From positions 185-64,184 of the forward strand of contig CAIYOD010000139.1 in the NCBI GenBank assembly GCA_903927755.1: a stretch of 64,000 bases of DNA, read 5' to 3'. A program made the translations under genes and the position numbers. Shown one piece after another: positions 28,913-56,355 of this stretch (position 1 is the stretch's first letter; each line of letters opens with the position of its first letter). Under the pieces are notes generated by a model. It was not told where the DNA came from, ran no database searches, and saw only the letters and a program-made list of their open reading frames with translations. Origin of the DNA: an uncultured Thermoleophilia bacterium. Lineage in GTDB: Bacteria > Actinomycetota > Thermoleophilia > UBA2241.

Positions 28913-28943
28913 CTGTCGTGTCTCCCCCGCCGGTCTCGACGCA

Positions 28944-29717
<774 letters not shown>

Positions 29718-30046: not shown

Positions 30047-30061
30047 CGCGGCCGGCCTGGC

Positions 30062-31603: not shown

Positions 31604-33196
31604 CTAGAACAGCCCCCTGACTGAGTCGACGAGCTGCGCCAGTGCGCCGATGCCCGCGCTCGTGTCGTTCAGCGACGGGGTGACGCGGTGGAGGATCACT
31701 TGCACGGGCACGTGCAGGAACTCGAGGAACGTCTGCGGGTAGACGCCCATCCAGATGACGAAGACGACCAGCGGGAGCAGCGAGACGATCTCGCGCAGGC
31801 CGAGGTCCTTGAGCGCGAACGAGGGCTTGACCTCGTCGTCGCCGCGGTCGTTGAACATCGTGCGCTGGAACATCCAGAGGAGATAGGCGGCGGCGAGGAT
31901 CACGCCGAGCGCCGCCACCGCCGCCATCCAGCGCGAGTACTCGAAGACACCGAAGAGGCTGAGGAACTCGCCCACGAAGCCGCTCAGCCCCGGCAGGCCC
32001 AAGGAGCCGAAAGCGAAGAACAGCAGGAAGCCGGCGGCAATCGGCATCGGCTTGGCGAGCGAGCCCATGTCGGCGATCAGCCGCGTGTGCGTGCGCTCGT
32101 AGATGAAACCGACCATGAGGAAGAGGGCGCCTGTGAGGAACCCGTGGCTGAGCATGACGAGGATCGCGCCCTCGATGCCCGCGGCGTTGCCGACGAGGGC
32201 GATGCCCGCGAAGATGCCCGCCGTGACGAAACCCATGTGGCTCACGCTCGAGTAGGCGACGAGCTTCTTGAGGTCCTTCTGCATCAGCGACACCAGCGCG
32301 CCGTACACGATCGCGACCACCGACAGGCCGACGACCCACGGGACGAAGGTGACGGCGGCGTCCGGGAAGAACGGCAGGCAGAAGCGCAGCATGCCGTAGC
32401 CGCCCATCTTCAGGAGGACGCCGGCCAGGATGACGGACCCTGCCGTCGGCGCCTCGACGTGCGCGTCGGGGAGCCAGGTGTGGACCGGGAACATCGGCAC
32501 CTTGATGGCGAAGGCCACGAAGAAGGCGAGGAACGCCCAGAACTGCAGGTGGTAGGAGTACACGACCTTGCTGAGCGCCTGGATGTCGAACGTCAGCGCC
32601 CCGCTCGAGTCCTTGACGTAGTACACGACGGCGATGATCGCCAGCAACATGAGCAGGCTGCCGATGAGCGTGAACAGGAAGAACTTGATCGCCGCGTAGA
32701 TGCGCCGCGGACCACCCCACACGCCGATGATGAAGTACATCGGGATGAGCATGGCCTCCCAGAACACGTAGAAGAGGAAGAGGTCGGTGGCGCAGAACAC
32801 GCCGACCATGCCGACCTGGAGCAGCAGCAGCGAGACGAAGAAGCCCAGCTCGCGGTCCTTGACGTAGTTCCAGCTGGCGATGATGACGATCACGCCGAGC
32901 AGCGTCGTGAGGAAGACGAGCAGGGCGGCGATGCCGTCGACGCCCATCCCGTAACGGATGTTGAGCGGCTTGATCCAGCTGATGTTCTCGGCGAACTGCA
33001 TGCCGGGCAGCTTGGTCTTGAAGGCGAAGAGCATCCACGCCGACAGCGCGAACGCGGCCAGCGTCACGATGAGCGAGATCACCTTGTAGACGACCGGCTT
33101 GCCACGGCCGACGAGCAGGATCAGCACCACGCCGGCGAGCGGCAGGAAGGTGATGACGGAGAGCAGCGGGAACCCGATCTGATCGCTCCAGCTCAT
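31604..33196 (-). CDS. nuoM: NADH:quinone oxidoreductase subunit M
   Basis: 530-aa antiporter-like membrane protein (MSWSDQIGFPLLSVITFLPLAG...), positioned between nuoL and nuoN. Confidence 0.9.
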   Translation of the reverse strand: MSWSDQIGFPLLSVITFLPLAGVVLILLVGRGKPVVYKVISLIVTLAAFALSAWMLFAFKTKLPGMQFAENISWIKPLNIRYGMGVDGIAALLVFLTTLLGVIVIIASWNYVKDRELGFFVSLLLLQVGMVGVFCATDLFLFYVFWEAMLIPMYFIIGVWGGPRRIYAAIKFFLFTLIGSLLMLLAIIAVVYYVKDSSGALTFDIQALSKVVYSYHLQFWAFLAFFVAFAIKVPMFPVHTWLPDAHVEAPTAGSVILAGVLLKMGGYGMLRFCLPFFPDAAVTFVPWVVGLSVVAIVYGALVSLMQKDLKKLVAYSSVSHMGFVTAGIFAGIALVGNAAGIEGAILVMLSHGFLTGALFLMVGFIYERTHTRLIADMGSLAKPMPIAAGFLLFFAFGSLGLPGLSGFVGEFLSLFGVFEYSRWMAAVAALGVILAAAYLLWMFQRTMFNDRGDDEVKPSFALKDLGLREIVSLLPLVVFVIWMGVYPQTFLEFLHVPVQVILHRVTPSLNDTSAGIGALAQLVDSVRGLF

Positions 33197-33197
33197 G

Positions 33198-35096
33198 TCA
33201 GCTCCCCCACACCCAGGCGAGGACGACGACGAGCGCGATCATGCCGCCGAACACGTACAGTGCGTAGTTCTGCACGCGGCCGGTCTGGATGGGCCGCAGC
33301 CGGTCGCCGATCCAGCCCCACAGCAACGCGATGCCGTTGACGGCGCCGTCGATGATCTTGGCGTCGACGAAGGTCCAGAGCCAACCGGCGAAGCCGAGCG
33401 TGGCGCCGACGGGCACGACCGCGTAGATGTCGTCCATGTAGACCTTGTTGAGGCTCGCCTTGTACGCCCACGGCACGCGCTCGGCGATGCGGCCGGGGAC
33501 GTCGGTCTGGCGCATGTACAGCCACCAGGCGATGGCGATGCCGACGAGCGCCAGCACCAGGGAGACTCCCATGAGCGCGCCGCCCTCGCCGATCCACGTG
33601 AACGGCTCGTGCTCCAGGTCGAAGAACACCGGCTCGAGGAAGCCGTGCAGCCAGCCCGACTCGGGCGGCACGCCGACCAGCAGGCCGAGCCCGAGCGCCG
33701 GTATCGAGAGAAGGATGAGCGGCACGGTCATGACCGGCGGCGACTCGTGGATGTGCGCCTGCACCTCGGCGTCGGAGCGGTTCTCGCCGAAGAACGTGAG
33801 GAAGATGAGGCGGAACACGTAGATGCCGGTGAGCAGCACGATGAGGAGCCCGACGGCCCAGACCAGGTAGTAGCCGTCGATGAAGGTCGCACCGAGGATC
33901 TCGTCCTTCGCCCAGAAGCCGGCGAAGGGGATGACGCCCACCATCGAAAGAGCGCCGATGAGCATCGTCCAGAACGTGATGGGGATCTTCTTGCGCAGCC
34001 CGCCCATCTTGCGCATGTCCTGCTCGCCGCCCATGGCGTGGATCACCGAGCCGGAGCAGAGGAACATGAGGCCCTTGAAGAAGCCGTGCGCGAACAGGTA
34101 GAAGATCCCGGCCACCCACGCTCCGGCCCCGAGGGCCACGAACATCAGCCCCAGGGACGAGATGGTGGAGTAGGCGATCACCTTCTTGATGTCGTTCTGG
34201 GTGATCGCGATGTACGCCGCGAAGATGGAGGTGAAGATCCCCACCACCATGACCACGGTCATCGCCGTGTCGCTCTGGATGAACAGCGGGTAGGAGCGCG
34301 CGACCATGTACACGCCGGCGTTGACCATGGTGGCGGCGTGGATGAGCGCGCTGACCGGCGTGGGGCCTTCCATGGCGTCCGGGAGCCAGACGTGCAGGGG
34401 GAACTGCGCGCTCTTGCCGATCGCGCCGGTGAAGAGCAGCAGGCAGATCCAGGTCATGAGGCTCGGCGCGATCTCGCCCTTCTCCGCCGCCTCGAACACG
34501 CCGGTGAACTGCAGCGTGCCGGTGGCGACGAAGATCGCGAACATCGCCAATGTGAAGCCGAAGTCGCCGACTCGGTTGACGATGAACGCCTTCTTGCCCG
34601 CCTGACTCGCGCTCTTCTTGCGGAACCAGAAGCTGATCAGCAGGTACGAGCAGAGGCCGACGCCCTCCCAGCCGAGGAACAGCAGGAGGTAGCTGTCGGC
34701 GAGGATGAGCACGAACATCGCGAACATGAACAGGTTGAGGTAGGCGAAGAACCGGTAGTAGCCCTCGTCCCCGTGCATGTAGCCGATCGAGTAGTAGTGC
34801 ACGAGCATGCCGATCACGCCGACGACCAGCAGCATGACGCCGGTCAGCGTGTCGACCTGGAAGCCCCACGGCACCGTGAACTGGCCGGCGGCGATCCAGG
34901 TGAAGGCGTTCCAGACGAACGTCTCCTCCTGGTGGCGGAACGCCCACTCGAAGCCGTAGACGGACAGCACGGCCGAGATGGTCACCATGGCCACCGGGAA
35001 GATGTGCGCGTGCTTGCCCCAGCGCTTGCCGAACAGCAGCGTCACGATGAACCCCAGCAGCGGCAGCAGCGGGATGAGCGCGACGGCGATCTTCAT
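33198..35096 (-). CDS. nuoL: NADH:quinone oxidoreductase subunit L
   Basis: Antiporter-like subunit with a long C-terminal extension. The preferred start is ATG at 35096 (MKIAVALIPLLPLLGF), preceded by GGAGGGGA. The ORF track starts it at 35114. Confidence 0.9.
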   Translation of the reverse strand: MKIAVALIPLLPLLGFIVTLLFGKRWGKHAHIFPVAMVTISAVLSVYGFEWAFRHQEETFVWNAFTWIAAGQFTVPWGFQVDTLTGVMLLVVGVIGMLVHYYSIGYMHGDEGYYRFFAYLNLFMFAMFVLILADSYLLLFLGWEGVGLCSYLLISFWFRKKSASQAGKKAFIVNRVGDFGFTLAMFAIFVATGTLQFTGVFEAAEKGEIAPSLMTWICLLLFTGAIGKSAQFPLHVWLPDAMEGPTPVSALIHAATMVNAGVYMVARSYPLFIQSDTAMTVVMVVGIFTSIFAAYIAITQNDIKKVIAYSTISSLGLMFVALGAGAWVAGIFYLFAHGFFKGLMFLCSGSVIHAMGGEQDMRKMGGLRKKIPITFWTMLIGALSMVGVIPFAGFWAKDEILGATFIDGYYLVWAVGLLIVLLTGIYVFRLIFLTFFGENRSDAEVQAHIHESPPVMTVPLILLSIPALGLGLLVGVPPESGWLHGFLEPVFFDLEHEPFTWIGEGGALMGVSLVLALVGIAIAWWLYMRQTDVPGRIAERVPWAYKASLNKVYMDDIYAVVPVGATLGFAGWLWTFVDAKIIDGAVNGIALLWGWIGDRLRPIQTGRVQNYALYVFGGMIALVVVLAWVWGS

Positions 35097-35124
35097 GTAC
35101 CCGGTCCCCTCCACGTGACCCCCG

Positions 35125-35433
35125 TCAGCCCTTGAGCTCGTCGAAAGTGTCGGTCTGCACGGTGCGCCTGTTGCGGTAGTTGGCGATCACGATCGCCAGG
35201 CCGACGGTCACTTCGGCGGCGGCCAGCACGATGATGAAGAGCGCGAAGAGCGTGCCCGCACCCTTGGCGCCGGCGCGGAAGTTGGCGGTCGCGACCAGAG
35301 CCAGGTTCACGGCGTTGAGCATGATCTCGAGGCTCATCACCACGAGGATGACGTTGCGGCGCGCGAGCACGCCGAACGCGCCGATGCAGAACAGCAGGAA
35401 CGAGAGCAGCAGCCACCAGTACAGGGCGTTCAC
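35125..35433 (-). CDS. nuoK: NADH:quinone oxidoreductase subunit K
   Basis: GTG start at 35433 preceded by GAAGGAG. The product reads VNALYWWLLLSFLLFCIGAFGVLARRNVILVVMSLEIMLNAVNLALVA.... The ORF-track entry 35125..36060 is an over-extension through nuoJ in another frame. Confidence 0.9.
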   Translation of the reverse strand: MNALYWWLLLSFLLFCIGAFGVLARRNVILVVMSLEIMLNAVNLALVATANFRAGAKGAGTLFALFIIVLAAAEVTVGLAIVIANYRNRRTVQTDTFDELKG

Positions 35434-35942
35434 GGGCGCTCCTTCTCGCGCGTCGCCAGCACGATGGCGCCGATCATGGCGGCGACGAGCACGAGCGAGA
35501 CGAGCTCGAACGGGAACACGTAGCGGTCGAAGATGAGCCGGGAGAGCTGGCGCAGGCCCGGTGTCAGCGACTTGTCGCCGATCTGGCCGATGTCGGACGA
35601 CAGCGCAACGAAGGCGAGCACCGCGGCGCCGACGAGCGCCACGACGGCGGCGATCGCCGTCTGGCGGTTGAAGAAGAGGTCGTACCCGCCGTGCTGCACC
35701 TCGGTGAGCATGATCGCGAAGATGATGACGATCGAGATGGCGCCGACGTACACGAGGATCTGGATGATGGCCACGAGCGGCGCGTTGAGCAGCGCGTAGG
35801 CGAACGCCACGCCGAGGAAGCAGAACACCATCGAGACGGCGGAGTACATGATCTTCCTGAACAGCACGACGCCGAGGCCGCAGACGAGCACCCACGCGGC
35901 CACGATGACGAAGAACCAGGGATGGAAGTCGCCGCCGGGCAT
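35430..35942 (-). CDS. nuoJ: NADH:quinone oxidoreductase subunit J
   Basis: 170-aa protein with about 5 TM helices (…IQILVYVGAISIVIIFAIML…). It overlaps nuoK by 4 nt and the upstream fusion gene by 1 nt. Confidence 0.9.
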   Translation of the reverse strand: MPGGDFHPWFFVIVAAWVLVCGLGVVLFRKIMYSAVSMVFCFLGVAFAYALLNAPLVAIIQILVYVGAISIVIIFAIMLTEVQHGGYDLFFNRQTAIAAVVALVGAAVLAFVALSSDIGQIGDKSLTPGLRQLSRLIFDRYVFPFELVSLVLVAAMIGAIVLATREKERP

Positions 35943-38416
35943 CAGGCCTCTCCCCCCGGGTCGTCCAGCGAAACCGGGTCGTCCTTGATCGGCTGCCAGA
36001 CCCAGCCCAGGCCACGCTCGGCGTCGAGGGCGTGCGGGACGAGATCGGCGACGGTCTCACGCAGCGAAGCGACCGGGCGCGACTCGCGGATGTAGAGCGA
36101 CTCGCGCGACATCGTCGTGCGGCTGTAACCGGCGAGCTCGAAGAAGTCGGTCTGCTCGAGAGCGTCGTAGGGACAGACCTCGACGCACTCGCCGCAGAAG
36201 ATGCAGCGGCTCTCGTCGAGGTCGTAGCTGCCGAGGATGCGCGGGTTGGTCTCGATGGAGCCCGTGGGGCACGTCTCGGCGCACTTGCCGCAGCTCACGC
36301 AGCCGACCAGCTGGAGCGGCAGGTTGTCGGCGGTGCTGACGATGGTGTCGAAGCCGCGGTCCATGTTGTCGTAGCAGCTCGACCCGACCTCCATGCGGCA
36401 CACGCGCACGCAGCGGCCGCAATTGATGCAGCGATTGGGCTCGCGCATGATGAAGTCGTGGCGGAAGTCGGCCGGGTAGTCGTGGGCGTCGCCACCGTGG
36501 AAACGATTCTTGAACACCTCGTACTCGATGCCGTACCGCTGCAGGTCGCACTTGCCGTTGGCCGGGCAGTAGCACTGCAGGCAGAGCTCGGCGCCGCGGA
36601 CGGCCTCGTCCTCACTGAAGCCGAGCTCGATCTGCGTGAAGTTGGTCTTGCGGTCGCCCGGCTCGAGCTTGGGCATCTCGGCCGGCGGGCTGGGATGCGA
36701 CACGTCGGTGGTCATGTCGATGAAGACCGGCGGGATCTCGGCCATGCGCGCGAGGCGCGGGTCCAGATCGGTCCGGTCGCTCAGCGCGTTGAAGAACGGC
36801 GTGGCCTTGAGCTCGGCGAGCGACTGTGAGAGGTCCGCCATGTCCTCGCCGCGCAGGAAGGCGTCCATGCTCCAAGCGGCCTTCTTGCCCTGGGCGACGG
36901 CTTGGATCACGGTCTGCGCGCCGAGCACGGCGTCGCCGCCGGCGAACACGCGCGGGTCCTCCGTCTGGAAGGTCCAGTCGTCCACCTGGATGGTGCGCCA
37001 CTTGGTGCGCTTGACGCCCTGCTCCTCGCTGGTGCCGTCGAGATCGGGGAACTGGCCGATGGCGGCGATGACCTGGTCGCACTCGATGACGAACTCGGAA
37101 CCCTCGACGGGTACGGGGCGGCGGCGGCCGGAGGCATCGGGCTCGCCGAGCTCCATGCGCTGCATCTCGATGCCGGTGACCTTGTTGGCGGCGTCGGCGA
37201 TCACGCGCACGGGGGCGCACAGGAGCTCGAGCTTGACGCCCTCCTCCTCAGCCTCGTCGACCTCGGTGTGGTGCGCCGGCATCTCCTTGCGGGAGCGGCG
37301 GTAGAGGCAGGTGACCTCGGCCGCGCCTTTGCGCACGCTGGTACGGCAGGCGTCCATGGCGGTGAAGCCGCCGCCGATCACCACGACCTTCTTCCCCACG
37401 TGCACGTCGCCGTTGAGCTCCAGCTCACCGAGGAAGTCGACCGCGGTGACGACGCCCTCGGCGTCCTCGCCGTCGCAGCCCATGCCGTTGCTGTTGAACG
37501 CGCCGAGAGCGAGGAACACGGCGTCGTACTCGGCGGTGAGCTCCTCGAGCTGGTAGTCGACGCCAAGCCGGCTGTTCGGCTGCAACTCGACGCCCATGCG
37601 CCACAGCACGTTGATCTCCTTGTCCAGGAGGTCGCGCGGCAGGCGGTAGCTCGGGATGCCGTAGCGAAGCATGCCGCCCGGCTTGGGCAGGGCCTCGAAG
37701 ATCTTGACGGAGTGGCCCTCGAGCCGGGCGTAGAAGGCGGCGGCGAGGCCGGCGGGCCCGCCGCCCACGATGGCGATCTTCTTGCCGGTGTCGGCCTTGG
37801 GCTCGACCGGCAGCAGCAGCTCGCCCGTCTGCTCCTCGTCGATCGTCTGATCGGCCATGAAGCGGTGGAGCTGGCAGATGGTGATGGGGTGCTCGACGAG
37901 CTGGCGGCGGCAGGGACCCTCGCACGGTCGCGGGCACACGCGCCCGAGCACGGCCGGGAACGGCAGGTCCTCGCGCAGCTTGCGCACGCCGTTCTTGTAG
38001 TCCTTGTGCGCGATGTAGTCGAGGAACTGCGGGATCTTGATGTGCGTCGGGCAGGCGTCGCGGCAGGGCGGCGTGCAGAAGGAGTTGTGGTCGCTGAGCA
38101 GCAGCTCGAGGTAGAGGTGCCGCATGGCGCGGACCTTCTCGGTGCTCGTCTTGACGACCATGCCGTCGCTCACGGCCGCCGAGCAGCTCGGGACCATCTT
38201 GCGGGCGCCCTCGACCTCGACGATGCACATGCGGCACGCCGCCGTGGCGGGCAGGCGCGGCTCGTAGCAGAGCGTCGGGATGTGGACGCCGATGCGCTGG
38301 GCGGCCTCGAGGATGGTGTCGCCGCGGTCGCAGGCGACCTCCTGCCCGTCGATGGTGACCAGCACCTGATCGGGTCGCGGCTTGGCCTGCGTGATGTTCT
38401 CGACGGTGGTCGCCAT
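35942..38416 (-). CDS. Fusion protein. It has a NuoG-type N-terminal [2Fe-2S] domain, then a GltD-type FeS/FAD/NAD(P)H oxidoreductase module, then NuoG-type [4Fe-4S] motifs, then the C-terminal half of NuoI.
   Basis: 824-aa single ORF with four recognisable segments. The [2Fe-2S] region is TLCYEPRLPATAACRMCIVEV. The GltD Fer4_20-like region is FCTPPCRDACPTHIKIPQF...GRVCPRPCEGPCRR. The dinucleotide fold is KIAIVGGGPAGLAAAFY, with a second GKKVVVIGGGFTAMD. NuoG-like CYCPANGKCDLQ, NRCINCGRCVRVC and CVSCGKCAETCPTGSIE follow. The terminal SRCIFCGECVEVCPYDALEQTDFFELAGY matches NuoI motif 2. Confidence 0.85.
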   Translation of the reverse strand: MATTVENITQAKPRPDQVLVTIDGQEVACDRGDTILEAAQRIGVHIPTLCYEPRLPATAACRMCIVEVEGARKMVPSCSAAVSDGMVVKTSTEKVRAMRHLYLELLLSDHNSFCTPPCRDACPTHIKIPQFLDYIAHKDYKNGVRKLREDLPFPAVLGRVCPRPCEGPCRRQLVEHPITICQLHRFMADQTIDEEQTGELLLPVEPKADTGKKIAIVGGGPAGLAAAFYARLEGHSVKIFEALPKPGGMLRYGIPSYRLPRDLLDKEINVLWRMGVELQPNSRLGVDYQLEELTAEYDAVFLALGAFNSNGMGCDGEDAEGVVTAVDFLGELELNGDVHVGKKVVVIGGGFTAMDACRTSVRKGAAEVTCLYRRSRKEMPAHHTEVDEAEEEGVKLELLCAPVRVIADAANKVTGIEMQRMELGEPDASGRRRPVPVEGSEFVIECDQVIAAIGQFPDLDGTSEEQGVKRTKWRTIQVDDWTFQTEDPRVFAGGDAVLGAQTVIQAVAQGKKAAWSMDAFLRGEDMADLSQSLAELKATPFFNALSDRTDLDPRLARMAEIPPVFIDMTTDVSHPSPPAEMPKLEPGDRKTNFTQIELGFSEDEAVRGAELCLQCYCPANGKCDLQRYGIEYEVFKNRFHGGDAHDYPADFRHDFIMREPNRCINCGRCVRVCRMEVGSSCYDNMDRGFDTIVSTADNLPLQLVGCVSCGKCAETCPTGSIETNPRILGSYDLDESRCIFCGECVEVCPYDALEQTDFFELAGYSRTTMSRESLYIRESRPVASLRETVADLVPHALDAERGLGWVWQPIKDDPVSLDDPGGEA

Positions 38417-38418
38417 GC

Positions 38419-40332
38419 TCAGGCCTCAGCTCCCGAAGCGCCGACCACAGCCTGCTCGACGCCCGACCGTACTTTGACGGCGTCGAACTTGCAGACCTGG
38501 CGGCAGGTGTCGCACTTGATGCAGTTGGCGACGTCGATGACGTGCAGCTGCTTCTTCTCGCCGGTGATGCACGACGTGGGGCACTTCTTGGCACAGAGCG
38601 TGCAGCCGGTGCAGGCGTCGGCGTCGATGTAGTACGTGATGAGCGACTTGCACTTGCCGGCCGGGCAGCGCTTCTCGCGGATGTGGGCCTCGTACTCGTC
38701 GCGGAAGTACTTGATGGTCGTGAGCACCGGGTTCGGGGCGGTGCCGCCGAGCGCGCAGAGGGAGCCCTCGATGATGTAGTGGCCCATCTCCTCGAGCAGC
38801 TCGATGTCGCCCTCGCGACCGTCGCCCTCGATGATGCGGTCGAGGGTCTCGAGCATGCGCTTGGTGCCGAGGCGGCAGGGGACGCACTTGCCGCACGATT
38901 CCTTCTGCGTGAAGTCGAGGAAGAAGCGCGCGAGGTCGACCATGCAGGTCTCTTCGTCGACCACGACCATGCCGCCGGAGCCGACGATGGCGCCGGTCGC
39001 GGCGAGGCTCTCGTAGTCGACCGGCGTGTCGAGCAGGTGTGCCGGGACGCAGCCGCCGGACGGGCCGCCGAGCTGGACGGCCTTGAACTGCTTGCCGCCC
39101 TTGATGCCGCCGCCGACGTCGAAGATCAGGTGGCGGAGACTGGAGCCCATGGGCACCTCGACGAGCCCGCCGTTGACGATCTTGCCGGCGAGGCTGAAGG
39201 CCTTGGTGCCGCGGCTGGTCTCGGCGCCGAGCGTAGCGTAGGCCTCGGCGCCGTTCTTGACGATCCACGGGACGTTGGAGAACGTCTCGACGTTGTTGAT
39301 GTTCGTGGGCTTGCCCCAGAGGCCGCTGACCGCCGGGAACGGCGGCCGCGTGCGCGGCATGCCGCGCTTGCCCTCGATGGAGGCGATGAGCGCCGTCTCC
39401 TCGCCGCAGACGAAGGCGCCGGCGCCGAGCTTGAGATGCAGGTTGAACTCCCAGCCGGTGCCGAAGATGTCGTTACCCAGATAGCCGCGCTCCTCGGCGG
39501 CGGCGACCGCCATGGTGAGGCGCTTGACGGCCGTCGGGTACTCGGCGCGCACGTACACGTAGCCCTCGTGGGCGCCGATGGCGTAGCTGCCGATGATCAT
39601 GCCCTCGATGACGGCGTGCGGGTCGCCCTCGAGGATGGAGCAGTCCATGAACGCGCCGGGGTCGCCCTCGTCGGCGTTGCAGATGAGGTACTTCTCGTCG
39701 CTCTTGGACTGGTTGGCGAATTTCCACTTGACGCCCGTGGGGAACCCGGCGCCGCCGCGGCCGCGGATGCCCGAGTCGGTGATCTCTTCGATGATCCACT
39801 CGGGAGTCTTCTCCGTGAGAGCCATCCGGGCGGCCTCGTACCCGCCGACGGCGACGTAGGCGTCGATGGTCTCGGGGTTGATGACGCCGACGTCGCGCAG
39901 CGCGATGCGCGTCTGCAGCTTGTAGAAGCCGATGTCGCGCCAGTCGCGGATGCGCTCGCCGGTCTGCTCGTCCTTGTAGAGGAAGCGCTCGACCGGCTGA
40001 CCGCCCTTGAGGTGCTCCTCCACCACCTTGGTGACGTCCCTGGGCTTGAGGTGGCCATACAGCGTGTCGTCGCTGAGCACCACGACGGGGCTCATCGAGC
40101 ACAGGCCGTGGCAGCCGATGATGCTGACCTCGACCTTGTCGCCGAGACCGGCCGTCTGGACCTCCTGCACGAACGCATCGTAGACGGCCATGGAGCCGGC
40201 GAACAGGCAGGCGGTGCCGGCGCAGACCTTGACGTTGTAGCCGCCGCCCGGACGCTCGCCGACGCTCACGTTGCGAGCCTCGGTCTCGGGAGCCGGGATG
40301 GTGATCTCGTCAGTCATGGTGCCTCTGCTCAC
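38419..40332 (-). CDS. NuoF-like NADH-binding flavoprotein of the HydB/HndC/StnC type. It has an extra N-terminal thioredoxin-like [2Fe-2S] domain and a C-terminal 2x[4Fe-4S] domain.
   Basis: 637-aa ORF. N-terminal VKVCAGTACLFAG...IIGCHGLCSMSP. FMN/NADH motifs GRGGAGFPTG and ICNADEGDPGAF. N3-type cluster ESCGKCVPCRLG...SLCALG. C-terminal CTGCTLCAKKCP and CIKCDTCRQVC. Confidence 0.9.
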   Translation of the reverse strand: MSRGTMTDEITIPAPETEARNVSVGERPGGGYNVKVCAGTACLFAGSMAVYDAFVQEVQTAGLGDKVEVSIIGCHGLCSMSPVVVLSDDTLYGHLKPRDVTKVVEEHLKGGQPVERFLYKDEQTGERIRDWRDIGFYKLQTRIALRDVGVINPETIDAYVAVGGYEAARMALTEKTPEWIIEEITDSGIRGRGGAGFPTGVKWKFANQSKSDEKYLICNADEGDPGAFMDCSILEGDPHAVIEGMIIGSYAIGAHEGYVYVRAEYPTAVKRLTMAVAAAEERGYLGNDIFGTGWEFNLHLKLGAGAFVCGEETALIASIEGKRGMPRTRPPFPAVSGLWGKPTNINNVETFSNVPWIVKNGAEAYATLGAETSRGTKAFSLAGKIVNGGLVEVPMGSSLRHLIFDVGGGIKGGKQFKAVQLGGPSGGCVPAHLLDTPVDYESLAATGAIVGSGGMVVVDEETCMVDLARFFLDFTQKESCGKCVPCRLGTKRMLETLDRIIEGDGREGDIELLEEMGHYIIEGSLCALGGTAPNPVLTTIKYFRDEYEAHIREKRCPAGKCKSLITYYIDADACTGCTLCAKKCPTSCITGEKKQLHVIDVANCIKCDTCRQVCKFDAVKVRSGVEQAVVGASGAEA

Positions 40333-41090
40333 CCCTTCGCACCGCCGACCTCTTCCATGAGGTCGCGGATGATCTTGCGTGTCTGGTCAGGGGTGAGGCC
40401 GCCGTAGGTCTGGTCGCCGATGCGCATGACGGGAGCCTGCGAGCAGGCGCCCATGCAGGCGACGGACGACAGCGTGAACTTCATGTCCGTGGTCGTCTTG
40501 CCGTCGGCGATCCCGAGTTCTTCCTCCAGAGCCTCGGTGATCTGGACCGCTCCCGCGACGTGGCAGGCGGTGCCGTGGCAGACGTCGATGATGTACTCGC
40601 CGACCGGTGAGAGCCGGAACTGGTTGTAGAAGCTGGAGACGCCGTAGATCTGGCTCAGCGAGACGCCGGTCTGCAGGCTGAGCTCCTGGAGAGCGACGCG
40701 CGGCAGATAGCCATAGACCTCCTGCGCGTTCTGCAGCATGGCGATGAGGCCGGTGCCGTGCTCGTAGTAGTCGTCGAGCACCGGCTGCAGATCCTTGAGC
40801 TCGATGCCCTGCTGCGCCGCGAGGCGCGCCTCGGCGATGCGCGCCGCGTTGGGCACCGGCAGACGGTACTTGCTCGTGTGATTGACGCGGATGACCTGCA
40901 CCGGGCAGTTGCTCTCGCACAGGGTGCAGGAGCGGCAGCGCGGCTCGCCGCTCGCGGGGTCGATGACCACGCGGAAGAGGCCGCGGCTGCGCGCCGGCAG
41001 CGCCTCGCGCTGCTCCGGGTACTGGACGGTGAGCTTCTTCTTGGGCAGATGGCTCATCGTCTGCCGCATGGCCTTGAACATGCCGAGCAT
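40329..41090 (-). CDS. Fusion protein: N-terminal half of NuoI (first [4Fe-4S] motif) joined to a complete NuoE-type [2Fe-2S] domain
   Basis: 253-aa single ORF. LTVQYPEQREALPARSRGLFRVVIDPASGEPRCRSCTLCESNCPVQVIRV matches the NuoI N-terminal half. IAMLQNAQEVYGYLP...DVCHGTACHVAG...SVACMGACSQAPV matches NuoE. The ATG overlaps the nuoH stop by 1 nt, and the stop overlaps the next start (ATGA). Confidence 0.85.
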   Translation of the reverse strand: MLGMFKAMRQTMSHLPKKKLTVQYPEQREALPARSRGLFRVVIDPASGEPRCRSCTLCESNCPVQVIRVNHTSKYRLPVPNAARIAEARLAAQQGIELKDLQPVLDDYYEHGTGLIAMLQNAQEVYGYLPRVALQELSLQTGVSLSQIYGVSSFYNQFRLSPVGEYIIDVCHGTACHVAGAVQITEALEEELGIADGKTTTDMKFTLSSVACMGACSQAPVMRIGDQTYGGLTPDQTRKIIRDLMEEVGGAKG

Positions 41091-42208
41091 CAGGCGCTCA
41101 CCACCGGCTGGCGCTCACGCTGCTTGCGCAGGCGGCGCTTGAGGATCGGGTCGAACAGGCCCACGAAGGCGAAGAAGGAGACCCAGCCGAAGACCAGGAG
41201 GCCCCACTTCCAGCTCGGTACCCACAGGATGATCGCCGCCGTGGCGAGGATGTTGACGAGCCCGAGCGGGATGAGGATCTTCCAGGCGAACGCCATGAGC
41301 TGATCCACCTGCAGGCGCGGGATGCTGAAGCGGATCCAGACCAGCGCCGACACGAGCACGTACGTCTTGGCGAGGAACCAGAAGATACCGATCCACTCGA
41401 TGCCCCAGAACTGGATGGCGCCGGCCCAAGGGCCCATCCAGCCGCCGAAGAACAGCGTCACGGCGACCATGGACATGATCGTGAGGCCCGCGTACTCGTT
41501 GAGGTAGAACATGCCGAAGCGCATGCCCGAGTACTCGGTGGCGTAGCCGGCGACCAGCTCGGACTCGGACTCGGGCAGGTCGAACGGGCCGCGGTTAAGC
41601 TCGGCGATCGAGGCGATGTAGAACATGAGGAAGGTGAACGGCGCGTAGAAGCCGATCCACTCGTAGTTCGCCTGGAAGGCGACGATGACGTCGACGCGCA
41701 GCGACCCGACGATCATCGCCACGATGAGCAGGCTGAGGAGCATCGGGATCTCGTAGCTGATCATCTGGGCGGCGGCGCGCAGCGCGCCGACCAGCGAGTA
41801 CTTGTTGCGCGACGCCCAGCCGCCCATGAGGATCGAGAGCGTCGTGAAGCTGGTGATGGCGACGAGGAAGATGACGCCGACGTTGAGACTCGTCGCCATG
41901 AAGCCGCCGGTGTACGGGATCACGAGCTGGATGGAGACGGCGCCGATCATCACCGTCACCGGCGCGAGCGTGAACAGCACCGGGTCGGCGAGCAGCGGAC
42001 GGAAGTCCTCCTTGCCCATCATCTTGAAGGCGTCGGCGACGCTCTGCAGCACGCCCTGCGGGCCGGTCCGGTTGGGGCCGAGCCGGTCGCCGATGAACGC
42101 CATGAAGCGGCGCTCGTAGAAGATGTTGACCAGCGCCGCGACGAACACCACCGCGTAGGCGATGACGACGAAGAGGACGGCCCTGAGGATGTCGACGAGG
42201 ATGTCCAC
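41090..42208 (-). CDS. nuoH: NADH:quinone oxidoreductase subunit H
   Basis: 372-aa polytopic protein. FYERRFMAFIGDRLGPNRTGPQGVLQSVADAFK matches the NuoH/ND1 N-terminal signature. Confidence 0.9.
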   Translation of the reverse strand: MDILVDILRAVLFVVIAYAVVFVAALVNIFYERRFMAFIGDRLGPNRTGPQGVLQSVADAFKMMGKEDFRPLLADPVLFTLAPVTVMIGAVSIQLVIPYTGGFMATSLNVGVIFLVAITSFTTLSILMGGWASRNKYSLVGALRAAAQMISYEIPMLLSLLIVAMIVGSLRVDVIVAFQANYEWIGFYAPFTFLMFYIASIAELNRGPFDLPESESELVAGYATEYSGMRFGMFYLNEYAGLTIMSMVAVTLFFGGWMGPWAGAIQFWGIEWIGIFWFLAKTYVLVSALVWIRFSIPRLQVDQLMAFAWKILIPLGLVNILATAAIILWVPSWKWGLLVFGWVSFFAFVGLFDPILKRRLRKQRERQPVVSA

Positions 42209-43423
42209 TTAGCGGTCGATGCCTCCGAGCACGAGGTCGATGCTGCCCGAGATGGCCACCGCGTCGGCGATCTTGTTGCCGCTGAGGAGCTTCGGGAACA
42301 GCTGCAGGTTGCAGAAGCAGGGGTCGCGGTACTTGAGCCGGTACGGATACCGCGACCCGTCGCTCTCGATGTACGTGCCGTACTCGCCGCGCGGGTTCTC
42401 CTGGCCGACGTAGGCGGAGCCCGGCGGCGGCGTGATGACGTAGGGAGCGCGCAGCGAGCCCAGCTGGACCGGGCCTTTAGGGAGCATGTCCAGGCACTGT
42501 TCGATGATCTTGAGACTCTCACGCATCTCGTCCATGCGGCAGCGATAGCGGTCGAAGATGTCGCCGTGCTGCGCCGTGATGACCTCGAAGTCGAGCTCCG
42601 GGTACACCGAGTACGGCCGCGTGCGGCGCAGGTCGAGGTCGATGCCGGAGGCCCGCGCGTTGGGGCCGGTGATGCCGTAGTCGACCACGTCCTGCTGGGT
42701 GATGACGCCCTTGGCCTGCGTGCGCTGCAGGAAGACGGCGTTCGTGTCGACCAGCGCCTCGTACTCCTTGATCTTCTTCGGGAACATCTTGAGGAAGTCG
42801 CGGCACTTCTCCACCCAGCCGTCGGGGAGGTCGTAGCGCACGCCGCCGAAGCGATAGTAGTTGAACATCATGCGCGCGCCGGTGAGCTCCTCCATGAGGT
42901 CGAGGATGATCTCGCGGTCGCGGAACATGTAGAAGACCATCGCGGTGCCGAGCGGCGAGAGGTCGGCGGTGAACGTGCCGACCGCCACAAGGTGGCTGGC
43001 GATGCGCATGAGCTCGCCGGTGATGACGCGGATGAACTCCGCCCGCCGCGTGACCTGCATGCCGGCGAGCTTCTCGACGGTCATGACGTAGGCCCACTCG
43101 CAGTTGATGCTGGCGAGGTACTCCGTGCGGTCGACGATCGGGATGTACTGGAAATACGTGCGCTTCTCGGCCAGCTTCTCCTTGCAGCGATGCAGGTAGC
43201 CGATGACCGGGATCACGTCCTTGACGAGCTCGCCGTCGAGGGTCACGACCAGGCGCAGCACGCCGTGCGTGCTCGGATGCTGCGGCCCCATGTTGACGAC
43301 GACCTCGTTGAAGGCCAGGCCGTCGACGTCGGAGCCCTCGCCGCGCGCCGTCGACTCCTCGATGCGGCGCAGGGCGAGCTTCACGGCCTCGTCCGGCTCG
43401 GGAGTCTCGAACTGGTCATACAT
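42209..43423 (-). CDS. nuoD: NADH:quinone oxidoreductase subunit D
   Basis: Start at ATG 43423 (MYDQFETPEP). Contains NMGPQHPSTHGVLRL and the C-terminal SIDLVLGGIDR. The ORF track extends it to 43483. Confidence 0.9.
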   Translation of the reverse strand: MYDQFETPEPDEAVKLALRRIEESTARGEGSDVDGLAFNEVVVNMGPQHPSTHGVLRLVVTLDGELVKDVIPVIGYLHRCKEKLAEKRTYFQYIPIVDRTEYLASINCEWAYVMTVEKLAGMQVTRRAEFIRVITGELMRIASHLVAVGTFTADLSPLGTAMVFYMFRDREIILDLMEELTGARMMFNYYRFGGVRYDLPDGWVEKCRDFLKMFPKKIKEYEALVDTNAVFLQRTQAKGVITQQDVVDYGITGPNARASGIDLDLRRTRPYSVYPELDFEVITAQHGDIFDRYRCRMDEMRESLKIIEQCLDMLPKGPVQLGSLRAPYVITPPPGSAYVGQENPRGEYGTYIESDGSRYPYRLKYRDPCFCNLQLFPKLLSGNKIADAVAISGSIDLVLGGIDR

Positions 43424-43910
43424 GCGGGTGGTTCTCCGCGAGGTCGACGTAGTCTTTGCGCAGCGGGTGGCCGACGAAATCATCCTTGAGCAGAATGCGG
43501 CGCAGGTCGGGGTGGCCGGTGTAGACGATGCCGACCATGTCCCAGGACTCGCGCTCGTGCCAGTCGGCCGCCGGCCAGACGCCGGTCACCGTGTCGACCT
43601 CCGGCTTGGCGCGCGGCAGGTCGACATGCAGCTCGAGATAGGTGTTCGTCTTCCAGGAGTACACGTGGTAGACGCTCTCGAACGAGGTGCCGCGGTCGAC
43701 GCCGGCGATCCAGTTGAGCGTCTCGTAGCCGGCGTCGGCGTCGGCCTTGAGGCGCGCGGCGACGTCCTTGAGCTTCGCCGGCGTGCAGCGGGCGACGACG
43801 GTGTCCGGCTCCTGGATGCGCACGTCGTCCAGCTCGCCGGCGAAGCGCTCCACGAGGAGCGCCGCGATGGCGTCCATGCTCATCGGATTGCTGCCGACCT
43901 GCAGGCCCAT
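43416..43910 (-). CDS. nuoC: NADH:quinone oxidoreductase subunit C
   Basis: The in-frame ATG at 43910 gives MGLQVGSNPMSMDAIAALLVERF.... Contains PAADWHERESWDMVGIVYTGHPDLRRIL (NuoC signature). The upstream part of ORF 43416..44255 overlaps nuoB in another frame. Confidence 0.85.
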   Translation of the reverse strand: MGLQVGSNPMSMDAIAALLVERFAGELDDVRIQEPDTVVARCTPAKLKDVAARLKADADAGYETLNWIAGVDRGTSFESVYHVYSWKTNTYLELHVDLPRAKPEVDTVTGVWPAADWHERESWDMVGIVYTGHPDLRRILLKDDFVGHPLRKDYVDLAENHPHV

Positions 43911-43912
43911 GA

Positions 43913-44482
43913 TCAGGCGTCCGATTCCGAAGCGACGTCGGAGGCCGGCGCGAGCGCCTCGGCGGCGGCCGGCTTGGAGGGCACGAACTGGTACTGCTGG
44001 ATCTTGCCCTGCAGCTCCAGCAGGCCCTGGAACAGCGCCTCGGGGCGCGGCGGGCAGCCGGGGATGTACACATCGACCGGCACGATCTTGTCGACGCCGT
44101 TGACCACGTTGTAGCCGTCGTAGAACGGGCCGCCGCTGGTGGCGCAGGCGCCCATGCTGATGACCCACTTGGGCTCCGACATCTGGTCGTACAGGCGCTT
44201 GAGCACCGGCGCCATCTTCTCGTTGACGGTGCCGGCCACGATCATGAGGTCGCACTGCCGCGGCGTGGGGCGGAACACCTCCATGCCGTAGCGGGCGATG
44301 TCGTAGCGGGCGAACCCCGACGTGAGCATCTCGATGGCGCAGCAGGCCAGGCCGTACGTGAACGGGAAGACCGAGTGCGAGCGCGCCCAGCTGAAGATGA
44401 AGTCGGCGGTGGTGGTGATGACGTTCGGCTCGCTGAAGTGCTCGAGCTTCGGGTACCTGACCGCCTTGACGCGCTCACTCAT
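43913..44482 (-). CDS. nuoB: NADH:quinone oxidoreductase subunit B
   Basis: The start at 44482 ([12 protein letters not shown]) overlaps the nuoA stop (ATGA). N2-cluster cysteine motifs [19 protein letters not shown] and IPGCPP are present. Confidence 0.9.
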
Positions 44483-44847
44483 GCCCACTCGAGGGCCCCC
44501 TTGCGCCAGGCGTACAGCAACCCGAAGGCGAGCACGGCGATGAACAGCAGCATCTCGATGAACCCGGCGGTGCCGAGGCCGCGGAAGACGAGCGCCCACG
44601 GGAACAGGAAGGCCGACTCGACGTCGAAGACGAGAAAGAGGAGACCGTAGACGAAGTAGCGGACCGCGAACGGCTGCCACGGATTGCCGACCGGCGGGAT
44701 GCCGCATTCGTAGGGCTGCAGCTTCTCCGGCGTGAGGTGGCTCGGATTGATGAGCTTGGAGAACAGAAGGATGACGACGACCAGCGCGGCTCCGGCGACG
44801 ATGAAGAGCCAGACATACAGCCAGTCTGTGAGGTATGCATTCGTCAT
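44479..44847 (-). CDS. nuoA: NADH:quinone oxidoreductase subunit A
   Basis: The ATG at 44847 gives [25 protein letters not shown].... Contains YECGIPP and [15 protein letters not shown] motifs. Confidence 0.9.
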
Positions 44848-44928: not shown

Positions 44929-45004
44929 ACCCCCTTCTACACCGGTGGGGGTATACGGGTCTCTCGCGGATTTGCAGGTATTTCCTCCGCACGAGGAGGC
45001 CGCG

Positions 45005-45033
45005 TTGCACTTCGGCCCCGCGGCTCGTACGAT
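45005..45033 (+). promoter_or_regulatory. Candidate sigma70-type promoter for tatA-tatC
   Basis: TTGCAC-N17-TACGAT, 38 nt upstream of the tatA ATG. GAGGTGA lies just before the start. This is a pattern match only. Confidence 0.3.
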
Positions 45034-45070
45034 GGAGCGGCATCGCTACCACGACCGAGGTGACCCCCAC

Positions 45071-45640
45071 ATGAGCATCGGCCCCGCCGAGATCATCATC
45101 GTCCTCGTGCTCGCCCTGCTGGTCTTCGGACCCAAGCGGCTCCCGCAGATGGGCAAGTCGCTCGGCAAGGGCGTGCGCGAGTTCCGCAAGGCCGCGGACA
45201 CGGCCAAGACCGAGCTCGGTCTGGGCGAGGTCACCGACCAGATCAACGAGGTCAAGTCGACCTTCACCGAGCCTCTCAAGGGCGTCACCAGCACGATCGG
45301 CGACCTCAAGTCGAGCGTCGATCTCAAAGCGAGCATCGAAGCGCCGGCCGGCGCGGTCGCGGCGGCAGGCGCCGCCGGAGCCGCCGCGAGCGCGAGCACC
45401 CCCAGAAGCGGCTCCGCGCCGGCGTCACCGACGCCGGCTGCCGGAGCGTTCGACGAAGGACCGGAGACGCCGGCGGTCACCCCGCAGACGGCATTCGCCG
45501 ACGTTCCACGATCGCCGGCGGCGCCGCAGGAGCCGGTCGCCGAAGCGCCCGTCGATTCACCGGAGGCGCCGGTCGCGCCCAAGGCGCCGGAAGGCCCTGT
45601 GGCCGCCGGCTCGCCGGCGGGTCCCGCGACCGGAGCCTGA
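45071..45640 (+). CDS. tatA: Twin-arginine translocase TatA/E-family protein with a long Ala/Pro-rich C-terminal tail
   Basis: [41 protein letters not shown] is the canonical TatA TM plus amphipathic helix. About 120 further low-complexity residues follow. Confidence 0.9.
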
Positions 45641-45644
45641 CCGC

Positions 45645-46451
45645 GTGGCGCTCACCCCCGAAGAACGACTGACGCTGTTCGAGCACCTCGACGAGCTGCG
45701 CAAGCGCCTGTTCGTCTGCCTCCTCGCCGCGACCGTCGGCGTCCTCGTCGCGGCGCTCTTCAACAGCTTCATGTTCGAGGCGCTGCTCTATCCGCTGCGC
45801 CAGGTGGCCAATCTCCCCGAGTCGGCCACCAAGATCACCACGTTCAGCCCGGCCGAGCCGTTCATGGTCAGCCTCAAGGTGTGGGTGGTCGGCGGGCTCA
45901 TCCTGGCCGCGCCGATCATCATCTACGAGCTCTGGGCCTTCCTCGCGCCGGCCTTCAGCGCCAACGAGAAGAAGTACTTCTACCCGATCGTGCTCGCCAC
46001 CACGGCCCTCTTCTTCATGGGCGTGGCGCTCGCCTACTTCCTCGTGCTGCCCAAGGGCCTCGCCTTCCTGCTCACCTTCAGCGCCGGCTTCTTCAACGTC
46101 CAGCTGCGCGCCAGCGACTACTTCACCTTCATGGCGCTCTTCATCCTCGCCTTCGGCGTGGTGTTCGAGCTCCCGGTCGTCCTCGTGCTGCTCGCCAAGC
46201 TGGGCGTCGTCGACGACAAGTGGCTGCGCAAGAACCGGCGCTGGGCGATCGTCGCCCTGGCCCTCGCGGCCGCCATCATCACGCCCAGCCAGGACGCCTT
46301 CAGCATGCTGGCGATGTTCATCCCTCTCTACGTCCTCTACGAGGTCTCGATCGTCCTCGCCCGGTTCGTCCAGCCGAAGAGGGAGGCCGGCGCCGTCGTT
46401 GAAGACTCCCCAGGAGACGACGACGACTCAGCCAGCCCTGCGCCCGCGTGA
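45645..46451 (+). CDS. tatC: Twin-arginine translocase subunit TatC
   Basis: GTG start. LTLFEHLDELRKRLFVCLLA... and six TM helices are typical of TatC. Confidence 0.9.
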   Translation: MALTPEERLTLFEHLDELRKRLFVCLLAATVGVLVAALFNSFMFEALLYPLRQVANLPESATKITTFSPAEPFMVSLKVWVVGGLILAAPIIIYELWAFLAPAFSANEKKYFYPIVLATTALFFMGVALAYFLVLPKGLAFLLTFSAGFFNVQLRASDYFTFMALFILAFGVVFELPVVLVLLAKLGVVDDKWLRKNRRWAIVALALAAAIITPSQDAFSMLAMFIPLYVLYEVSIVLARFVQPKREAGAVVEDSPGDDDDSASPAPA

Positions 46452-46498
46452 ACGCGCGCGGGGCGTGCCGCGTCCCCTCTCGGGTAGAATGAGGAGCC

Positions 46499-56317: not shown

Positions 56318-56355
56318 CCCGCGAGTATAGACGGTCGAGGGGACCCGGACCGCCC

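Follow-up and report, generated by a model that had tools for sequence, protein, structure and literature searches.

The closest described relatives of the gene treated here, a NuoF homologue encoded at positions 38419..40332 on the minus strand of a 64,000-nucleotide stretch of DNA from an uncultured Thermoleophilia bacterium (assembly GCA_903927755.1, contig CAIYOD010000139.1; the whole stretch is called the window), belong to the electron-bifurcating (Bfu) enzymes. The best solved relatives of the core of its product, BfuB, and of the products of the neighbouring genes, BfuA and BfuC, are NfnABC and StnABC (8OH5, 9BOV, 9N5U), soluble heterotrimers or oligomers with the same C-B-A gene order. 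In NfnABC, electrons pass from flavin adenine dinucleotide (FAD) through clusters A7, A6, A3, A2, A1 and B1 to flavin mononucleotide (FMN), while ferredoxin is reduced via C1, B3 and B4; the B3/B4 domain is the ferredoxin-reducing end. In the preliminary description of this gene StnC was named as the NuoF-like subunit of Stn. This was a mistake: StnB is NuoF-like, and StnC resembles GltD and NuoG.

Bfu genes within the operon of another enzyme have been predicted before. Schut et al. 2022 collected BfuB sequences by a domain set of NuoF-like FMN domain, SLBB, [4Fe-4S] region and C-terminal ferredoxin domain, placed the Nfn/Stn B subunits in clade 53, and predicted Por-Bfu, Mbh-Bfu and, with BfuB clades 38 and 39, 'Nuo-Bfu' in Geobacter and other Proteobacteria, Deferribacteres, Planctomycetes and Nitrospirae. 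Nuo-Bfu is a 14-subunit cluster (A-N) with BfuABC in place of NuoEFG, for which the accessible text describes no NADPH-binding or GltD domain; Actinobacteria and Thermoleophilia are not mentioned in the accessible parts of that paper or of its supplement. A NUO-2 with such a NuoF2 was reported from Nitrospina and Kuenenia by Luecker et al. 2013, the Nitrospina NuoF2 reportedly without an FMN site. Nuo-Bfu and NUO-2 have been proposed to be proton-pumping, quinone-reducing Bfu enzymes working on NADH and ferredoxin. A NuoF of this type inside a complex I operon had been called unexpected; the location of the gene stands, and the surprise was overstated, since Nuo-Bfu (2022) and NUO-2 (2013) precede it.

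The gene of the window is read here as encoding the B subunit of an NfnABC/StnABC-like Bfu module that is probably a physical part of complex I, with NuoI rebuilt from two fusion proteins and with NADH, NADPH and ferredoxin as electron input. Bfu-type NuoF proteins in complex I operons are known; the split NuoI and the Nfn-type architecture do look new. A full-text literature search, which does not cover all journals, found no description of a split nuoI, of an Nfn module in complex I or of a Thermoleophilia complex I; the precedents found were the general Nuo-Bfu and NUO-2 only.

Classification and features of BfuB

The gene and its domains are located as follows (window positions; aa, amino acids).

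38419..40332, minus strand: BfuB (NfnB/StnB/HydB-type NuoF homologue), 637 aa
40015..40254, minus strand: N-terminal thioredoxin-like domain, aa 27-106, with B5 site Cys37/42/74/78 (Pfam)
39268..39783, minus strand: FMN/NAD(H)-binding domain, aa 184-355, with GRGGAGFPTG, NADEGDPGAFM and GAGAFVCGEETAL (Pfam, motif conservation)
38683..38937, minus strand: four-helix bundle with B1 (N3-equivalent) [4Fe-4S], Cys480/483/486/526 (Pfam NADH_4Fe-4S)
38650..38685, minus strand: linker with Bfu-type B2 zinc site, His550, Cys556, Cys561 and upstream Cys463 (spacing, conservation)
38473..38634, minus strand: C-terminal 2x[4Fe-4S] ferredoxin-like domain, B3/B4 (Pfam, PDB matches, Cys conservation)

The GTG start of the open reading frame (ORF) shares bases with the stop codon of the preceding gene, and an ATG follows 15 nt downstream. 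The architecture first proposed for the protein, an FMN/NADH core between an N-terminal thioredoxin-like [2Fe-2S] domain and a C-terminal 2x[4Fe-4S] domain, was confirmed. The translation contains all motifs quoted for it (GRGGAGFPTG, ICNADEGDPGAF, ESCGKCVPCRLG, CAGTACLFAG...GCHGLCS, CTGCTLCAKKCP and CIKCDTCRQVC), and Pfam identifies 2Fe-2S_thioredx at aa 27-106 (9.5e-11), Complex1_51K, the Nuo51 FMN domain, at aa 184-355 (4e-48), NADH_4Fe-4S, the iron-sulfur region of NuoF, at aa 466-550 (2.7e-33) and a two-cluster ferredoxin domain (4Fe-4S Fer4/dicluster models) at aa 567-620. NuoF-like FMN domain, SLBB, NuoF [4Fe-4S] region and C-terminal ferredoxin-type 4Fe-4S domain are all found in the protein, as are the ligands of B1, B2 (three Cys and one His), B3, B4 and B5.

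Searches against PDB separate the protein from respiratory NuoF. At full length it scores 646-812 bits with B subunits of the bifurcating family, aligning nearly end to end, and 300-407 bits with respiratory NuoF, Nqo1 and 51-kDa chains, which cover only residues ~147-558. The respiratory NuoF/Nqo1 chains in PDB are 418-464 aa long, in line with the earlier statement that respiratory NuoF lacks the extra domains. The contribution of these domains was removed by searching PDB with the core only (aa 131-550, phmmer); PDB codes were matched to organisms through the data-availability statements of the papers. The core scores were as follows.

C. saccharolyticus NfnB (9BOV): 668 bits
S. ovata StnB (8OH5): 666 bits
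T. sibiricus NfnB (9N5U): 649 bits
NiFe-HydB: 646 bits
FeFe-HydB: 525-610 bits
FdsB: 384-431 bits
Nqo1: 401 bits
E. coli NuoF: 380 bits
Aquifex NuoF: 372 bits
Mitochondrial 51 kDa: about 320 bits

Core identity is ~67-69% to NfnB/StnB, against 42-48% to respiratory NuoF. The protein misses the cut-off of the NuoF equivalog TIGR01959 in NCBIfam (498 bits, cut-off 558.65), and likewise those of NF008436 (399, cut-off 749) and NF010120 (387.8, cut-off 389).

Neighbour-joining (NJ) trees of the core were built with annotated NuoF, FdsB, HoxF, HydB and Stn genes from a plasmid collection and five PDB cores as references; Nuo-Bfu sequences of the Geobacter, Kuenenia or Nitrospira type are not part of these trees. 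The first tree separates the window BfuB and its orthologues, together with the Bfu B subunits, from NuoF, FdsB and HoxF in 83% of 500 bootstraps. In the second, without the variant L066 and with the lineage L087 (both described below), the Bfu sequences and those of Thermoleophilia are split from NuoF, FdsB, HoxF and L087 in 89% of 300 bootstraps. The Thermoleophilia BfuB orthologues form a clade of their own (85-94% bootstrap). Core scores, trees and the missed NuoF cut-off support the proposal that the NuoF homologue of the window is a B subunit of the Bfu family and not a respiratory NuoF.

Ligand conservation was counted in 51 sequences, the window BfuB and 50 orthologues of 50-96% identity. 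Cys480/483/486/526 of the N3-type B1 cluster are present in 51/51 sequences, the zinc-site residues Cys463, His550, Cys556 and Cys561 in 50/51, and both the B5 cysteines Cys37/42/74/78 and the eight cysteines of the B3/B4 domain in 49-51/51. The concern that the extra domains might be spurious, without conserved FeS ligands, is thereby answered. Residues around the flavin and the additional clusters, which had been singled out for inspection, agree. The 2025 paper on T. sibiricus NfnABC lists the AFM motif, the Phe of the GAGAF loop and GGPSG as features that Bfu enzymes conserve and non-bifurcating homologues lack, and places an Asp beside the flavin of Bfu enzymes instead of a positive charge. 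In BfuB the counterparts A227-F228-M229, F307 (in GAGAFVCGEE) and GGPSG at 422-426 are kept in 49-51/51 sequences, and the flavin-adjacent Asp is essentially invariant. The His-x5-Cys-x4-Cys linker, which corresponds to the B2 zinc site defined in PMC12018979, has a spacing identical to that of S. ovata StnB.

The two extra domains resemble different relatives. The C-terminal ferredoxin domain matches only Bfu B subunits in PDB (81-129 bits), while the best matches of the N-terminal domain are NiFe-HydB and A. woodii HydB, ahead of the NfnB chains of C. saccharolyticus and T. sibiricus. The B5 site holds [2Fe-2S] in the NiFe-HydB and FeFe-HydB structures and zinc in the two NfnB proteins. With its four conserved cysteines the domain resembles the [2Fe-2S]-bearing HydB rather than the zinc-bearing NfnB, and the B5 site of BfuB probably holds a [2Fe-2S] cluster. 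The earlier attribution of the extra domains to HydABC-type hydrogenases, Hnd, formate dehydrogenases and Stn holds for the Hyd and Stn B subunits; it does not for the B subunits of Fds-type formate dehydrogenases, which have no C-terminal ferredoxin domain.

Five substitutions in BfuB, E312S, P198S, T199A, A220G and R329K, each occur in 10-15/51 sequences. Glu312 is a residue said to favour NADH over NADPH. If the five co-occur, a subclade that binds nucleotides differently would be indicated.

The split nuoI and the BfuC and BfuA fusion proteins

The genes on both sides of bfuB encode fusion proteins, each of which carries one half of NuoI.

40836..41090, minus strand: NuoI N-terminal half (aa 1 to ~85 of a 253-aa protein), with the first CxxCxxCxxxCP motif (TIGR01971, PDB NuoI/NDUFS8 matches)
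40329..40793, minus strand: BfuC (NfnC/StnA/HydC, NuoE-like) on the same 253-aa polypeptide, with the C1 [2Fe-2S] cluster (PDB matches)
35942..38416, minus strand: BfuA, Nfn/Stn type, 824 aa, ending in the NuoI C-terminal half (Pfam, NfnA alignment)
36839..38077, minus strand: GltD/NfnL-like FAD and NADPH-binding insertion in BfuA, aa 114-526 (Fer4_20, Pyr_redox_2; NfnI, GltD and DPD matches)
35942..36247, minus strand: NuoI C-terminal half (aa 724-824 of BfuA), with the second CxxCxxCxxxCP motif and a NuoI-type tail (TIGR01971, NF004537, NuoI/NdhI PDB matches)

Residues 1 to ~75 of the 253-aa protein match NuoI/NDUFS8 in the PDB search. The NuoI profile TIGR01971 (NCBIfam) is matched over positions 3-66 in this protein and over positions 69-114 in the 824-aa protein, where positions 103-167 of NF004537 also match the C-terminal half. 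When the halves are artificially joined, a single TIGR01971 match results (positions 3-114 of 121; 97.8 bits, just below the 113-bit cut-off). The Cys/Pro motifs are invariant in the N-terminal (65/65) and C-terminal (44/44) halves, and BfuA retains each of its 28 other conserved Cys positions across the orthologues. Linker lengths are fixed as well, at 85 residues for BfuC (58/58 fusions) and at a spacing of 32 for BfuA (44/44 fusions). A reading of the N-terminal extension of BfuC as a generic ferredoxin motif was rejected: the NuoI profiles already match from position 3, far ahead of the Cys motif, and the operon would otherwise have no NuoI.

The BfuC part has NfnC (169 bits) and StnA (159 bits) as its best PDB matches. 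Its C1 cysteines are kept in 65/65 sequences, and the flexible linker of 11 residues (hinge) is also kept; shortening of this hinge impairs bifurcation in T. sibiricus NfnABC. BfuA contains a [2Fe-2S] domain, a GltD-like FAD/NADPH domain with conserved GxGxxG, GGGxxA and YRR motifs, a Cys4 motif and a ferredoxin-like domain of the Nqo3 type. It scores 538-645 bits with the solved Nfn/Stn A subunits overall (567 bits with S. ovata StnC), and the 645-bit match to C. saccharolyticus NfnA covers residues 4-698 of 1178 only; the entire C-terminal NuoG/Fdh-like, molybdopterin-type domain of NfnA is missing.

The remaining genes of the operon are nuo genes.

44479-44847, minus strand: nuoA (Pfam)
43913-44482, minus strand: nuoB (Pfam)
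43416-43910, minus strand: nuoC (Pfam)
42209-43423, minus strand: nuoD (Pfam)
41090-42208, minus strand: nuoH (Pfam)
35430-35942, minus strand: nuoJ (Pfam)
35125-35433, minus strand: nuoK (Pfam)
33198-35114, minus strand: nuoL (ORF/translation, synteny across loci)
31604-33196, minus strand: nuoM (ORF/translation, synteny across loci)
30062-31603, minus strand: nuoN (ORF/translation, synteny across loci)

Pfam assignments of the neighbours thus bear out the placement of the gene inside a complex I operon. In the order of the minus strand (nuoA, nuoB, nuoC, nuoD, nuoH, 253-aa protein, BfuB, 824-aa protein, nuoJ, nuoK, nuoL, nuoM, nuoN) the 13 genes read nuoABCDH-[NuoI N-half::BfuC]-BfuB-[Nfn-type BfuA::NuoI C-half]-nuoJKLMN, with no intact nuoI. 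Adjoining genes overlap or are 2 nt apart (TGATG, GTGA, TGAGCATG). No further NuoI- or NuoF-like sequence was found in the window, and the operon contains no catalytic domain or subunit of a hydrogenase.

The C-B-A order of the cassette is that of the stn locus of Acetoanaerobium, which encodes a 175-aa StnA, a 576-aa StnB and a 1195-aa StnC. On the gene arrangement, the simplest reading would be that a stnABC-like cassette was inserted into the nuoI of an operon of the 11-subunit type (ABCDHIJKLMN), with both junctions in frame and with loss of the StnC-type C-terminal domain.

Comparison with described systems

With NfnABC and StnABC the Thermoleophilia proteins share the FMN/NADH site, B1, B2 (Zn), B3/B4, C1, the GltD-like FAD/NADPH domain, the Bfu signatures and the hinge of BfuC. 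In contrast to the soluble enzymes, BfuC and BfuA are fused to NuoI halves inside a nuo operon, so that no stand-alone operon for a soluble three-subunit enzyme is present, and BfuA has no molybdopterin-type domain.

Nuo-Bfu and NUO-2 have in common with the window a complex I operon whose NuoF homologue carries extra [2Fe-2S] and 2x[4Fe-4S] domains, and the BfuABC genes of the window do lie within a complex I cluster. Unlike in Nuo-Bfu, the cluster does not consist of 14 separate A-N subunits with an intact NuoI: the module is located inside nuoI, between nuoH and nuoJ, its BfuA is of the Nfn type with an NADPH site and without a molybdopterin-like domain, two NuoI fusions are present, and the host phylum is Actinomycetota (Thermoleophilia). 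The argument for an origin independent of Nuo-Bfu is drawn from the gene order and the type of BfuA only. The FMN site, reported missing from Nitrospina NuoF2, is intact in the Thermoleophilia BfuB.

Respiratory NuoF, Nqo1 and NDUFV1 share with BfuB the homologous FMN/NADH domain, the N3 cluster and the location in a complex I operon with membrane subunits. BfuB adds the N-terminal domain, the zinc linker and the C-terminal ferredoxin domain, and has AFM and Phe where the Bfu literature reports other residues in non-bifurcating homologues. The domain set of BfuB is also that of the B subunit of HydABC and NiFe-HydABCSL, to whose NiFe-HydB and A. woodii HydB members its N-terminal domain is closest, but the Thermoleophilia operon has no hydrogenase part and its BfuA carries a GltD-like domain instead. 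With the predicted Por-Bfu and Mbh-Bfu it shares the presence of Bfu genes within the operon of another enzyme; the partner enzymes differ, and the accessible text mentions no split-ferredoxin fusions for either.

Conservation and distribution

More than 120 metagenome relatives, counted as clusters at 90% identity, match the 253-aa fusion at full length with 65-96% identity; wherever a taxon is named, it is Thermoleophilia. In a set of 1.84 billion representative proteins, only two clusters at 50% identity are such fusions at full length. In data with one genome per species 78 loci were found, nearly all from metagenome-assembled genomes (MAGs) of uncultured Thermoleophilia/Actinomycetota, with Danish soils and sediments, peat and anaerobic reactors as sources. 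Every sufficiently long Thermoleophilia locus, from ~70 species genomes, has the same 13-gene architecture.

This recurrence bears on the suggestion that the gene is a standard respiratory nuoF, with the split nuoI and the extra domains as artefacts of gene calling, assembly or chimerism, or that the operon combines two unrelated enzymes. Some source annotations do call the neighbouring fusion 'NADH-quinone oxidoreductase subunit E'. The arrangement, however, recurs in ~70 genomes that were assembled independently, in several projects and with several sequencing technologies, core identity and the missed NuoF equivalog cut-off point away from respiratory NuoF, and the operon has no NuoI unless the fused halves count. 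The suggestion is therefore hardly credible.

Two fragments carry other labels. L007 (3.8 kb, labelled Deltaproteobacteria) is a 94% identical copy of the Thermoleophilia genes, and L070 (2.0 kb, labelled Vicinamibacteria) a ~70% identical one. They were not taken as signs of a wider or horizontal spread and are probably mis-binned Thermoleophilia fragments.

Related variants

A second copy of the cassette, linked to por genes and without nuo genes, occurs in some of the same genomes, with the order porG-porD-porA-[NuoI-N-like::BfuC]-BfuB-[BfuA::NuoI-C-like::PorB (TPP domain)], where TPP stands for thiamine pyrophosphate. Such copies are found at L076 7727-15844 and in L075, which belong to the same genomes as L066 and L061, and also in L074. 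The Por-linked BfuB nests within the nuo-embedded clade with 100% bootstrap; it is therefore regarded as a Por-Bfu that derives from the complex I cassette.

A nuo-embedded variant from a single genome, L066 9998-14270 (MAG CAVXDR01, uncultured Actinomycetes), has a BfuB with a decayed FMN domain (no Complex1_51K match, no GRGGAGFPTG) and without both extra domains. Its BfuA has lost the NADPH subdomain and contains a BfuB-type 2x[4Fe-4S] domain. The variant could be a real rearrangement or a decaying copy.

Another lineage of lower GC content with a split nuoI is represented by L087 359-11571 (Logan SRR22388304 contig, 11.9 kb, GC 49%). Its gene order is nuoH-[NuoI-N::NuoE-like, 251 aa]-[NuoF-like::GltD, 1048 aa]-[short NuoG-like::NuoI-C, 265 aa]-nuoJKLMN, and its NuoF-like protein has no C-terminal ferredoxin domain. 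In the NJ tree its F core is placed outside the Bfu clade and is not sister to Thermoleophilia; splitting of nuoI for an NAD(P)H module therefore arose more than once, or the module was exchanged.

Proposed assembly and electron transfer

The FMN/NADH, B1, Zn, B3/B4 and B5 sites of BfuB are intact, and C1 and the hinge of BfuC as well as the FAD/NADPH motifs of BfuA are present. In a 2x[4Fe-4S] ferredoxin fold each cluster takes three of its Cys ligands from one motif and the fourth from the other. Clusters N6a and N6b would therefore form only when both fusion polypeptides come together, and the reassembly of NuoI would clamp the Bfu module onto NuoB/C/D/H, the quinone module. From the family placement, the conserved cofactor sites, the fusions and the synteny we infer such an assembly, the paths and direction of the electrons, and a possible bifurcation.

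Clusters A3 and A2 of NfnABC would be equivalent to N5 and N4 of NuoG. Electrons from NADH would enter at the FMN of BfuB and pass through B1 to the clusters of BfuA, while those from NADPH would enter at the FAD of BfuA and pass through the clusters of its GltD domain. Both paths would join at the N5/N4-equivalent clusters of BfuA, located 22 residues upstream of the NuoI C-terminal half. From this node electrons would continue over N6a/N6b and N2 to menaquinone, with proton pumping by NuoHAJKLMN. C1 of BfuC and the B3/B4 domain of BfuB would give ferredoxin access to the flavin site, so that the enzyme could co-oxidise NADH and reduced ferredoxin (confurcation) and exchange electrons with NADP(H). 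Plausible redox partners would be four: NAD(H), NADP(H), ferredoxin and menaquinone. The most likely direction would be from NADH (with reduced ferredoxin, and with or without NADPH) to menaquinone with proton pumping; NADH and ferredoxin to quinone is also the direction that Schut et al. 2022 proposed for Nuo-Bfu. The Thermoleophilia enzyme may carry out bifurcation or confurcation.

Several points weigh against this proposal. The host organisms are uncultured, and the functional reading rests on genomes. The pairing of the NuoI halves is drawn from the NuoI-specific profile matches and from the otherwise orphan N-terminal half; AlphaFold2, run on the joined halves with no alignment given, returned an unusable model (predicted local distance difference test score, pLDDT, 31). 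Pfam dicluster models fit the last BfuA motif and the motif of the NuoI C-terminal half together (aa 706-752). A position of the Thermoleophilia clade beside the Nfn/Stn rather than the Hyd B subunits has 21% support only. In all characterised NfnABC a Lys ligates A7 and is needed for bifurcating activity; at the aligned position BfuA has His184 (44/44). An extra Cys181, three residues before His184, is likewise invariant (44/44) where NfnA and StnC have Ala. Finally, all three donors are more negative than menaquinone, so that electrons flow to it downhill and thermodynamics does not demand bifurcation.

Pairing of the NuoI C-terminal half with the preceding BfuA motif was considered as a separate candidate. 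It is less likely, since that motif is already part of the Nqo3-type domain (PF22117, aa 655-720) and since the NuoI profile runs on past the Cys motif.

The same thermodynamic argument and the replacement of the A7 Lys by His/Cys would suit an ordinary, non-bifurcating NAD(P)H input module from which electrons simply run down to menaquinone, with the Bfu domains as structural or evolutionary leftovers; the split-nuoI module of L087, with its NuoF-like protein lacking the C-terminal ferredoxin domain, also fits. Against this reading, the B5, B2, B3/B4 and C1 ligands, AFM/GGPSG and the BfuC hinge are under clear purifying selection among orthologues of 50-96% identity, in T. sibiricus NfnABC only the bifurcating activity depends on B4 and the hinge, and L066 keeps a BfuB-type ferredoxin domain despite its decayed FMN site. 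A non-bifurcating module is thus considered unlikely, though it deserves to be kept in mind.

The Bfu module docked on complex I may be carried further to a membrane-bound, four-substrate Bfu enzyme, in which an Nfn-type module is covalently clamped to complex I by the split NuoI and passes electrons from NADH, NADPH and ferredoxin to menaquinone with proton pumping. The cassette would then be a portable docking device that was reused in the Por-linked paralogue, and with it an NADH module would have arisen a second time, independently, on a complex I of 11 subunits. This extended version is put forward tentatively, at somewhat less than an even chance. Possible modes would be the confurcation of NADH and reduced ferredoxin for extra driving force, or a quinone branch that pulls the Nfn reaction.

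Surrounding genes

Two genes 10-20 kb from the nuo operon encode ferredoxin-linked oxidoreductases.

54404-57130, minus strand: aldehyde:ferredoxin oxidoreductase (AOR; AFOR_N, AFOR_C), the listed ORF being longer than the gene
59903-61807, minus strand: indolepyruvate/2-oxoacid:ferredoxin oxidoreductase (IOR) alpha-like protein (POR_N, TPP_enzyme_C, Fer4)

Both suggest that catabolism in this organism is linked to ferredoxin, and they fit a ferredoxin-reducing metabolism. As ferredoxin-reducing catabolic enzymes they speak against the idea that the complex runs mainly in reverse, with the proton-motive force pushing electrons from menaquinol to the Bfu module for the formation of NAD(P)H and reduced ferredoxin. 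Complex I is reversible, and reverse operation has been proposed for Nitrospina NUO-2, a complex with Bfu-like NuoF2/NuoG2; nothing in the window, however, suggests a lithoautotroph in need of reverse electron transport, and mainly reverse operation appears very improbable.

Upstream of the operon (44945-48787, plus strand) are tatA, tatC and a gene for a class A penicillin-binding protein; downstream (27287-29717, minus strand) are genes for a YmdB-like phosphoesterase and a polyprenyl-phosphate sugar transferase. Neither flank has a redox gene immediately next to the nuo operon. The GC content of the window is 65-73%. Third-codon-position GC is 0.93-0.98 across the whole nuo operon and 0.83-0.92 in the flanking genes, which may reflect codon-usage bias. 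At positions 30000-36000 the AT skew of the plus strand is strongly positive (+0.19 to +0.25), likely because the membrane-subunit genes, which lie on the minus strand, use T-rich codons.

Implications

Docking of a Bfu module on complex I, and bifurcation coupled to quinone reduction and proton pumping, have so far been a genomic prediction only (Nuo-Bfu, 2022). The Thermoleophilia operon provides unusually firm genomic evidence for a Bfu-complex I enzyme, because NuoI cannot form unless BfuC and BfuA assemble on the complex, and the split-NuoI complex is a defined target for expression, cryo-electron microscopy (cryo-EM) and multimer modelling. Its architecture would illustrate one way for an 11-subunit complex I, presumably linked to ferredoxin, to gain an NAD(P)H module, by insertion into nuoI and not at the canonical nuoEFG position. 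The hosts are an abundant, uncultured lineage of Thermoleophilia from soils, peat, sediments and anaerobic reactors.

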